Assembly: GCF_003790525.1 (NCBI RefSeq)
Contig: NZ_CP033635.1
DNA from: Escherichia coli
Lineage (GTDB): Bacteria; Pseudomonadota; Gammaproteobacteria; Enterobacterales; Enterobacteriaceae
Length of the DNA: 64,000 nt
Reading direction: 5' to 3' (one strand)
Below the pieces are notes generated by a model that was not told where the DNA came from, did no database searches, and saw only the letters and a program-made list of their open reading frames with translations. Shown here one piece after another: positions 17,479-18,217 of this stretch. Positions within the stretch are counted from its first letter, which is position 1. Each line of letters opens with the position of its first letter. The translations under genes were made by a program, and so were the position numbers.

Positions 17479-18217
17479 TGTAGTCAATAAGGAATAATAT
17501 TCAACATGGAGATGTCTTCTGGGAATGTTTACATAGCAAATGCTTTCACTCCGGTAATTAATTTCCGTGATTAACTGCTTTCGATCAATAAAGGAATTGC
17601 AAAAAGGTGATCTTGTTCACGACATCGTGGATAATAATATGCCTGATGTCTGAATCCGGAAACAGTGCTCTGGCGGGTTTCATGTGAAGTTGACGGATAA
17701 AAAAATCCGCACGACCAGACAGACGTGCGGTTTACGAAATTCGTAACAAGAGGCTTTTCTACGGATCACGTGGTGCGTGCCACGTGAAATTTTTGTAGCG
17801 CAAAATGTGTAATGTGTAAATACAAGGAAGGAAAAAGTTAAATCGGTGGAAGTCCATGCCTGCCACATGTATGTCTGCATTCCTCGTTTTGAACAGAATT
17901 CTCACCAGACATCGTGAATTTCTCATTCAATCATCAGAGATATTAACCAGGATTTTTATTGTTTTGTGATATCAGCAGTGCAGGTATACAGACATTAAAG
18001 TAATCAGGTTTATTATAACCACCTTTACAAAGTTGTATGTGTTTATAATTTAAGGATTTTAATGCCAGTCGTTTTCTGCTGCTTAAATTGAGGGTGCATA
18101 TTATACACAATAATATTCCTGGTATTATTAAATTAATAAAAGAGGATTCTTATCACTGTATTTTTGCTCCGCACTACCGTTCTGGCTGGTGAAGTAATAA
18201 TACAGGAGAATAACAGA

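Follow-up and report, generated by a model that had tools for sequence, protein, structure and literature searches.

Morons of lambdoid phages are autonomous gene units, each with its own promoter and terminator, that are inserted between phage genes, as conceived by Hendrix and colleagues. AT-rich promoters silenced by H-NS are known for acquired adhesin genes, such as upaG/ehaG. The closest described counterparts of the locus analyzed here are the eib cassettes, represented in GenBank by the P-EibA, P-EibC, P-EibD, and P-EibE records (accession numbers AF151091 and AF151674 to AF151676), which list the order orf-191, stem_loop, eib, stem_loop, orf-156. The spacer between orf-191 and the trimeric autotransporter gene of these cassettes is AT-rich. 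A different accessory region, the pR' moron site of enterohemorrhagic E. coli (EHEC) prophages, carries the convergent small RNA (sRNA) pairs AgvB, AsxR, and EcOnc03 (PMC4104026).

The layout of the eib cassettes recurs in the window (the whole 64,000-nucleotide stretch of Escherichia coli DNA that was analyzed; all positions refer to it), where a tail fiber assembly-like (tfa-like) gene, an AT-rich spacer with stem-loops, a trimeric autotransporter gene, another stem-loop, and a small ORF follow each other (Table 1). Judging by sequence similarity, the tfa-like gene corresponds to orf-191 of the P-Eib prophages (ECOR-9). The original prediction had placed the spacer upstream of an autotransporter gene; the position stands, and the type can be refined, as the product contains a YadA_anchor domain (Pfam, E = 1e-16) and is a trimeric (YadA-type) rather than a classical autotransporter, starting at 18218. 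It shows 41% identity over 206 aa to the C-terminal region of EibD (E = 3e-40). The gene includes 4.4 tandem copies of a 99-bp repeat (33 aa, 98% identical; 18743 to 19175), and its length varies by strain, with 459 aa here, 515 aa in TUM1886, and genes of 1167 to 1569 nt elsewhere. ORF-151 resembles ORF-156 of P-Eib in length (151 versus 156 aa) and position and is 22% identical to it (pairwise E = 1e-4); by these similarities, it may be a distant counterpart of ORF-156. The tfa/orf-191 link, the gene order, and the EibD-like adhesin identify the cassette as Eib-type and place the adhesin gene in this family, with the tentative likeness of ORF-151 to ORF-156 in agreement. The kinship of the cassettes has its limits: the passenger domain is unlike those of the Eib proteins, a type also defined by non-immune immunoglobulin binding, and the spacer sequences are unrelated.

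As in morons, an extra gene block follows the tail fiber genes, with AT-rich DNA upstream and terminators at the edge. However, the classical moron terminator lies downstream of the moron gene, whereas the conspicuous terminators described below are found at the upstream edge, and the same block also occurs away from phages.

A GC-rich stem-loop with no T-run (TCCCGGGGG-gagt-CCCCCGGGA, 19621 to 19642) lies between the adhesin gene and ORF-151, at the place where the P-Eib records show a stem_loop following eib. Two insertion sequences are present in the vicinity, an IS66-family element (ISCro1-like, 12531 to 15155) upstream of the tail fiber gene and IS1414 (IS256 family, 20501 to 21709) between ORF-151 and dinI. 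This exact two-IS arrangement is absent from the genome collection, with TUM1886 being the closest.

Table 1. Features of the Eib-type cassette and of the prophage end, in window coordinates
Feature	Coordinates	Strand	Description
Tail fiber assembly-like gene	16864-17439	+	191 aa; Pfam DUF4376, E = 2e-20; ~70% DNA identity to orf-191A/C/D/E
Post-tfa hairpin	17442-17479	-	10-bp GC-rich stem-loop (17452-17479) directly after the tfa stop
Left junction sequence	17480-17611		Common to the Ch1 TAA cassette; 26-bp indel polymorphism (17516-17541)
Terminator A (predicted)	17699-17730	-	Stem CCGCACG (17707-17713)/CGTGCGG (17724-17730), 10-nt loop
Palindrome TTACGAAATTCGTAA	17732-17746		Perfect, 15 nt, between terminators A and B; small hairpin on either strand
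Terminator B (predicted)	17766-17796	+	CACGTG pair of the original prediction; stem TCACGTGG (17766-17773)/CCACGTGA (17780-17787)
Direct repeat	17778-17869		TGCCACGTG (17778-17786) and TGCCACATG (17861-17869); TGCCAC(G/A)TG type
Hyperdivergent patch	17972-18072		101 bp, two alleles ~62% identical, flanks 97-99%; covers the best promoter-like site
Sigma-70-like site	17989-18016	+	CAGACA-16-TATTAT, best plus-strand match (9/12); TTATTATAA core
Trimeric autotransporter adhesin gene	18204-19597	+	Shine-Dalgarno AGGAG (18204-18208), ATG at 18218, 459 aa
ORF-151	19659-20114	+	151 aa; sigma-70 region-4-like helix-turn-helix
Bidirectional terminator (predicted)	22189-22220		AAAAACCCCAGA...TCTGGGGTTTTT; adjoins site 2 hairpin
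Site 2 hairpin	22226-22256	+	GTGCACGTG-CATTT-CACGTGTAT, then ATATTTTTGT

The spacer between the tfa-like gene and the adhesin gene (17480 to 18217) had been described as AT-rich and lacking a convincing ORF, and both statements hold. Its GC content is 37.1%, compared to 50.7% for the window, which ranks it among the 1.2% of 738-bp windows with the least GC; the gene-proximal part (17800 to 18217) has 34% GC. The longest ORF is 66 aa, none of the six ORFs of 32 to 66 aa has a match in Pfam or PHROGs, and the RefSeq annotation shows nothing at this spacer across ~370 genomes. Hidden small proteins in the spacer were rejected for lack of Pfam and PHROGs matches. Rfam searches yielded no match in 17440 to 18217 at E<=1, the Rfam matches of the locus being confined to 22170 to 22521.

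The spacer contains two copies of the hexamer CACGTG (17767 to 17772 and 17781 to 17786; site 1), and a second pair is found at 22229 to 22234 and 22240 to 22245 (site 2), as originally reported. Site 2, however, does not belong to another moron region, as had been proposed, and lies at the prophage end, in the interval from dinI to the attachment site. Copies of the hexamer are few in the window, 9 in total versus 19.4 +/- 3.8 in dinucleotide shuffles. The probability that 9 randomly scattered sites in 64 kb would include two pairs with members no more than 20 bp apart is ~1.5e-4, so the pairing is not random. As CACGTG is its own reverse complement, two nearby copies make both a direct and an inverted repeat and form a hairpin.

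The site 1 pair, identified as inverted repeat I23 in an inverted-repeat search, forms a stem of 8 perfect base pairs (5 of them G-C) with a 6-nt loop, tgcgtg, and the tail AAATTTTTGT; if a U-G pair is counted, the alternative is 9 pairs and a 4-nt loop. Its predicted fold (-18.6 kcal/mol, z -4.1) is matched in stability by 0/200 shuffles. The site 2 stem has 9 bp, of which 4 are G-C pairs, and a fold energy of -11.2 kcal/mol (z -2.8). In a terminator consensus scan, both sites appear terminator-like on the plus strand, with 9 pairs and a T-run each. For a terminator defined by a G+C-containing stem of >=5 bp, a loop of 3 to 8 nt, and >=5 T in 8 nt, sites 1 and 2 have both the stem and the U-tract on the plus strand (AAATTTTTGT and ATATTTTTGT, respectively), and a comparable T-run on the minus strand is absent from both CACGTG hairpins. 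In all these respects, i.e., a G+C stem-loop of 8 to 9 bp, a loop of 4 to 6 nt, and a T-run on the transcribed strand, they resemble intrinsic terminators. They differ from those in that the stem is built on a palindromic hexamer and that the U-tract of hairpin B, not an ideal one, begins three A's past the stem; termination here is a prediction.

Immediately to the left of each CACGTG hairpin, there is a terminator-like element on the opposite strand (Table 1). At site 1, this is terminator A, in which the minus-strand stem is followed by ATTTTTTT (17699 to 17706); it corresponds to inverted repeat I16, folds with -17 kcal/mol (z -3.9), and is unchanged across five aligned genomes. A third hairpin, directly after the tfa stop, carries a T-run on the minus strand only (-19 to -20 kcal/mol; z -4.8 to -6.1) and looks like a minus-strand terminator that would shield the tail genes from antisense transcription. 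Overall, our scan for perfect stems of >=7 bp with a T-run finds three distinct hairpins in 17440 to 18217, compared to 0.03 expected from dinucleotide shuffles, and the whole 64 kb contains just ~15 distinct hairpin-plus-T-run sites with stems of >=8 bp. The location after the end of a gene block, with an adjoining partner on the other strand, is that of paired opposite-facing terminators.

On this basis, we think it probable, with due reserve, that the CACGTG pairs are stems of Rho-independent-type terminators of plus-strand RNA. Together with their opposite-strand neighbors, they would insulate adjoining modules from transcription in both directions. Site 1 (17699 to 17796) would then bound the Eib-like moron cassette on its left. 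Transcripts running rightward out of the tail fiber genes would be stopped by hairpin B, a role suggested by the lack of a plus-strand T-run in the post-tfa hairpin, and those running leftward from the AT-rich promoter region would be stopped by hairpin A and the post-tfa hairpin. For its expression, the adhesin gene would use a promoter of its own within the 34%-GC stretch (17800 to 18217), and site 2 (22189 to 22256) would do the same insulating job at the prophage end.

An 821-bp segment spanning the spacer is present in ~370 of 5426 complete E. coli genomes (~7%), many of them from poultry or human isolates. Most inspected copies reside outside prophages, in a chromosomal island where transketolase/PTS genes and a transposase fragment are their neighbors. 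The island copies (loci L006 to L009, around locus positions 3920 to 4000) keep only the last ~75 nt of tfa and resemble the remains of a prophage that became fixed in a genomic island. A near-identical copy is found on the conjugative plasmid NZ_OP290546.1 in a plasmid database search, and one shortened copy, in strain 14EC017, adjoins sul2/aph resistance genes. A search of the phage database gave no match to the site 1 spacer. The segment carrying the hairpins (17612 to 17800) is its most conserved part, with 99 to 99.5% identity in all copies; site 1 does not vary in any E. coli copy and therefore cannot be used to test for covariation.

Comparison with sister cassettes delimits the left boundary. 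The Ch1 cassette shares the junction sequence that follows tfa and diverges after ~17611, so cassette-specific DNA begins at ~17612, ~90 nt to the left of terminator A. In Ch1 and P-EibA/C/D/E, the spacers are similarly AT-rich (32 to 39% GC) and contain neither CACGTG nor, in the same scan, a plus-strand terminator. A minus-strand terminator-like hairpin right after tfa is found in Ch1, P-EibA, and P-EibD; in an alignment of the tfa ends of NY1601 and P-Eib, the hairpin after tfa differs each time.

The direct repeat that begins within hairpin B also contributes to variation. In some alleles (50EVA and MS20659), its second copy reads CACGTG, yielding a third hexamer 84 bp downstream. Strain DG341-1 (locus L068, 2230 to 2245) has an 83-bp deletion between the repeats and thereby no T-run at terminator B; this strain keeps the cassette, so terminator B is dispensable at least there.

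At site 2, the CACGTG hairpin is part of a conserved ~180-bp module that extends from the dinI promoter to a 25-nt copy of the ssrA 3' end. A 181-bp segment around site 2 is found in 571 genomes, mostly EHEC, at 80 to 85% identity, and in those genomes it sits between a dinI-like gene and a complete ssrA. By this context, the module is the dinI-to-attachment-site end of ssrA-type lambdoid prophages, the end that supplies the ssrA 3' end and the DNA downstream of ssrA; in EHEC prophages integrated at ssrA, the module is the DNA immediately downstream of that gene. The dinI-like gene has a promoter-like site that overlaps a LexA box-like sequence, CTG-N10-CAG (22113 to 22128), in line with SOS regulation of dinI.

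Among the relatives of site 2, the first hexamer is invariant, and the second is CACGTG, TACGTG, or TGCGTG, with one of the latter two forms in 5 of the 20 distinct variants. Across these 20 sequences, all cells (100%) of the 9-bp helix are paired; the changes in four of its pairs are exclusively G-C to G-U or U-A to U-G, and none is compensatory. These figures come from a biased sample, since the search patterns fixed one arm, and ~2/3 of the possible transitions in the 3' arm would retain pairing regardless; an A-C mismatch is present in one variant (L041). In unconstrained alignments with a mean column identity of 80%, the T-run does not vary, and in the neighboring helix (22189 to 22220), five pairs show compensatory changes. 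The pattern favors a conserved hairpin over a conserved double motif; as to which strand matters, the strand-specific wobble is weak evidence.

The adhesin promoter would lie to the right of the hairpins. The sigma-70-like site at 17989 to 18016 is a candidate for it. Promoter-like sites with 9/12 matches are no commoner than expected by chance; the TTATTATAA core of this one is kept in both alleles of the hyperdivergent patch that covers it. Judging by identity bands, roughly 150 to 180 genomes appear to carry each allele. The patch could represent a localized promoter replacement leading to allele-specific expression. It is bracketed, together with the promoter-like site, by a 17-nt inverted repeat (17946 to 17962 and 18107 to 18123, 88% complementary). 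An invertible promoter switch was considered and rejected, as the two alleles are colinear and no inverted form is seen in the genomes: 0/371 match an artificial inverted construct over >=80% of its length. One paper on Eib contains no statement about promoters.

As in the H-NS-silenced promoters of other acquired adhesin genes, the DNA upstream of this surface adhesin has 34 to 37% GC. The high-affinity H-NS motif TCGATAAATT, on the other hand, is not enriched beyond composition, with 2 hits at <=2 mismatches versus 1.6 +/- 1.3 in shuffles of the region. Silencing by H-NS would thus fit the composition only. The sequence CAATAATATTCCTG at 18106 to 18119, ~100 nt upstream of the adhesin start, resembles an RcsAB box in 11/14 positions (we take the consensus to be TaAGaatatTCctA), a weak lead.

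Several other readings of site 1 have to be weighed against a pair of terminators. It is unlikely that the three-hairpin block (17696 to 17796) is an sRNA gene, encoding either a minus-strand RNA of ~95 nt that runs from the CACGTG hairpin to terminator A or a plus-strand RNA with its 3' end at hairpin B; on this view, site 2 would correspond to the 3' part of an analogous minus-strand RNA. The block forms three hairpins on both strands (z about -3.7), and sRNAs are typically laid out in the same way, with an A/U-rich linker separating a terminator from a 5' stem-loop. Its standing as the most conserved part of the spacer would also fit an sRNA, although recent spread accounts for such conservation as well. 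Like the convergent sRNA pairs at the other lambdoid moron site (PMC4104026), this is a prophage accessory region with short structured elements ending in terminators on both strands. However, those pairs are located at pR' and not after tfa; site 1 shows no similarity to AgvB, AsxR, or EcOnc03 and no match to an Rfam family at E<=1, and no adjoining promoter-like site reaches 9/12 matches on either strand. The best minus-strand candidate, TTTACA-17-TACAAA, lacks the conserved final T and is removed by the DG341-1 deletion. An assignment to the prophage sRNAs AgvB, AsxR, or Pas was rejected given the different locus (the pR' moron site) and the unrelated sequences.

It is quite unlikely that hairpin B is a regulated attenuator in a long adhesin mRNA leader, with transcription starting upstream of 17766 or in the phage late operon and read-through being controlled, e.g., by the phage Q antiterminator upon induction. 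In lambdoid phages, Q-modified polymerase ignores intrinsic terminators. As there is no plus-strand terminator from the tfa stop to hairpin B, polymerase from the late operon would indeed reach it. Nevertheless, most copies of the cassette are in the chromosomal island, with no late operon upstream; there is no promoter-like site in 17480 to 17765; and the sister cassettes have no plus-strand terminator at the equivalent place.

That the hairpins are functionless relics of former gene ends or recombination junctions also seems quite improbable. In favor of this, the 83-bp deletion variant is tolerated, and indels and IS insertions give the cassette a mosaic structure. Against this stand the three strong terminator-shaped hairpins within 0.35 kb, where 0.03 would be expected, and the conservation of the site 2 hairpin and its T-run within flanks that are only 80% identical.

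The original prediction took the CACGTG pairs for a shared motif hinting at a common regulator of two prophage regions. This claim does not stand: the pairs are stem-loop arms followed by a T-run, and the two sites differ in spacing (14 bp between hexamer centers at site 1 versus 11 bp at site 2), flanks, and distribution. Beyond the hexamers and ATTTTTGT, they share no similarity; local alignments of their flanks score at noise level, and homology between the sites was rejected for this reason. The modules also differ in the genomes (~370 for site 1 versus 571 for site 2) and in the contexts in which they occur. A regulator common to both regions is thus unsupported, as the sites have no alignable similarity, different spacing, and separate distributions and histories. 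Neither is the motif conserved in homologous prophages: the second hexamer of site 2 drifts and the sister Eib-type cassettes lack CACGTG, largely the outcome that had been named as refuting a regulatory role.

The appearance of the same hexamer at both sites follows from its self-complementarity, since any stem built on CACGTG shows the motif twice. If, as we hold probable, both hairpins are terminators, the use of CACGTG at the two sites would be coincidence or, at most, reflect very old shared ancestry. The combination is nevertheless rare: a scan of 2.9 million viral contigs for CACGTG-N4-9-CACGTG-N1-4-ATTTTTG yields 48 stretches, of which ~38 are members of the site 2 family, one is a copy of site 1, and the rest are unrelated. 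This rarity makes two instances 4.5 kb apart an uncomfortable coincidence and leaves some slight room for distant common ancestry or a sequence-specific role of both sites. There is thus a faint chance that a twin-CACGTG hairpin with ATTTTTGT is a sequence-specific element at lambdoid module boundaries, recognized by a factor from the phage or the host; a nuclease, an antitermination protein, or an RNA-binding protein would be conceivable, if equally faint, candidates. If true, such an element would explain why the same rare hexamer stem is found at two unrelated boundaries so close together.

It is very improbable that the hexamers are double-stranded binding sites through which one regulator (ORF-151 or a host factor) controls both regions: the rare motif pair does occur twice within 4.5 kb, some alleles have a third CACGTG 84 bp downstream, and the cassette encodes a helix-turn-helix protein, but the second hexamer is not conserved among site 2 relatives, the spacing is 14 bp at one site and 11 bp at the other, sister cassettes with homologs of ORF-151/ORF-156 have no CACGTG, the two modules mostly occur apart, and site 1 is ~220 bp upstream of the best promoter candidate. 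No enterobacterial regulator is known to recognize CACGTG.

The preferred reading, in which the CACGTG pairs are predicted terminators, is largely ordinary: the hairpins would be previously unannotated elements of the terminator type that mark the boundaries of a cassette whose kind is known. The apparent regulatory motif would be a by-product of hairpin geometry that matters little beyond annotation. For expression studies of the adhesin, which is carried by ~7% of complete E. coli genomes, it is useful that the predicted promoter region of the cassette can be marked as starting downstream of 17800.

The prophage end itself appears to be composite. In this window, the site 2 module is followed only by the 25-nt ssrA 3'-end copy (22342 to 22366), and the prophage is located at ompW/yciE. 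The segment from 22150 to 22366 is homologous to the EHEC prophage-ssrA junction, yet the closest genomes also have the prophage at ompW/yciE. An ssrA-type end on an ompW/yciE prophage suggests a mosaic or tandem prophage end. Downstream, the minus strand of 22318 to 22521 has an Rfam match to isrK (69 bits) that overlaps one to c4-a1b1 (51 bits) and a further weak C4-like match (28.5 bits, below the family threshold), which includes the 25-nt ssrA 3'-end copy. This segment looks like a remnant of a P1-type immI/Gifsy isrK antirepressor control module. In DG341-1, an ORF6N-domain gene beside the same ssrA-like copy replaces the isrK segment.
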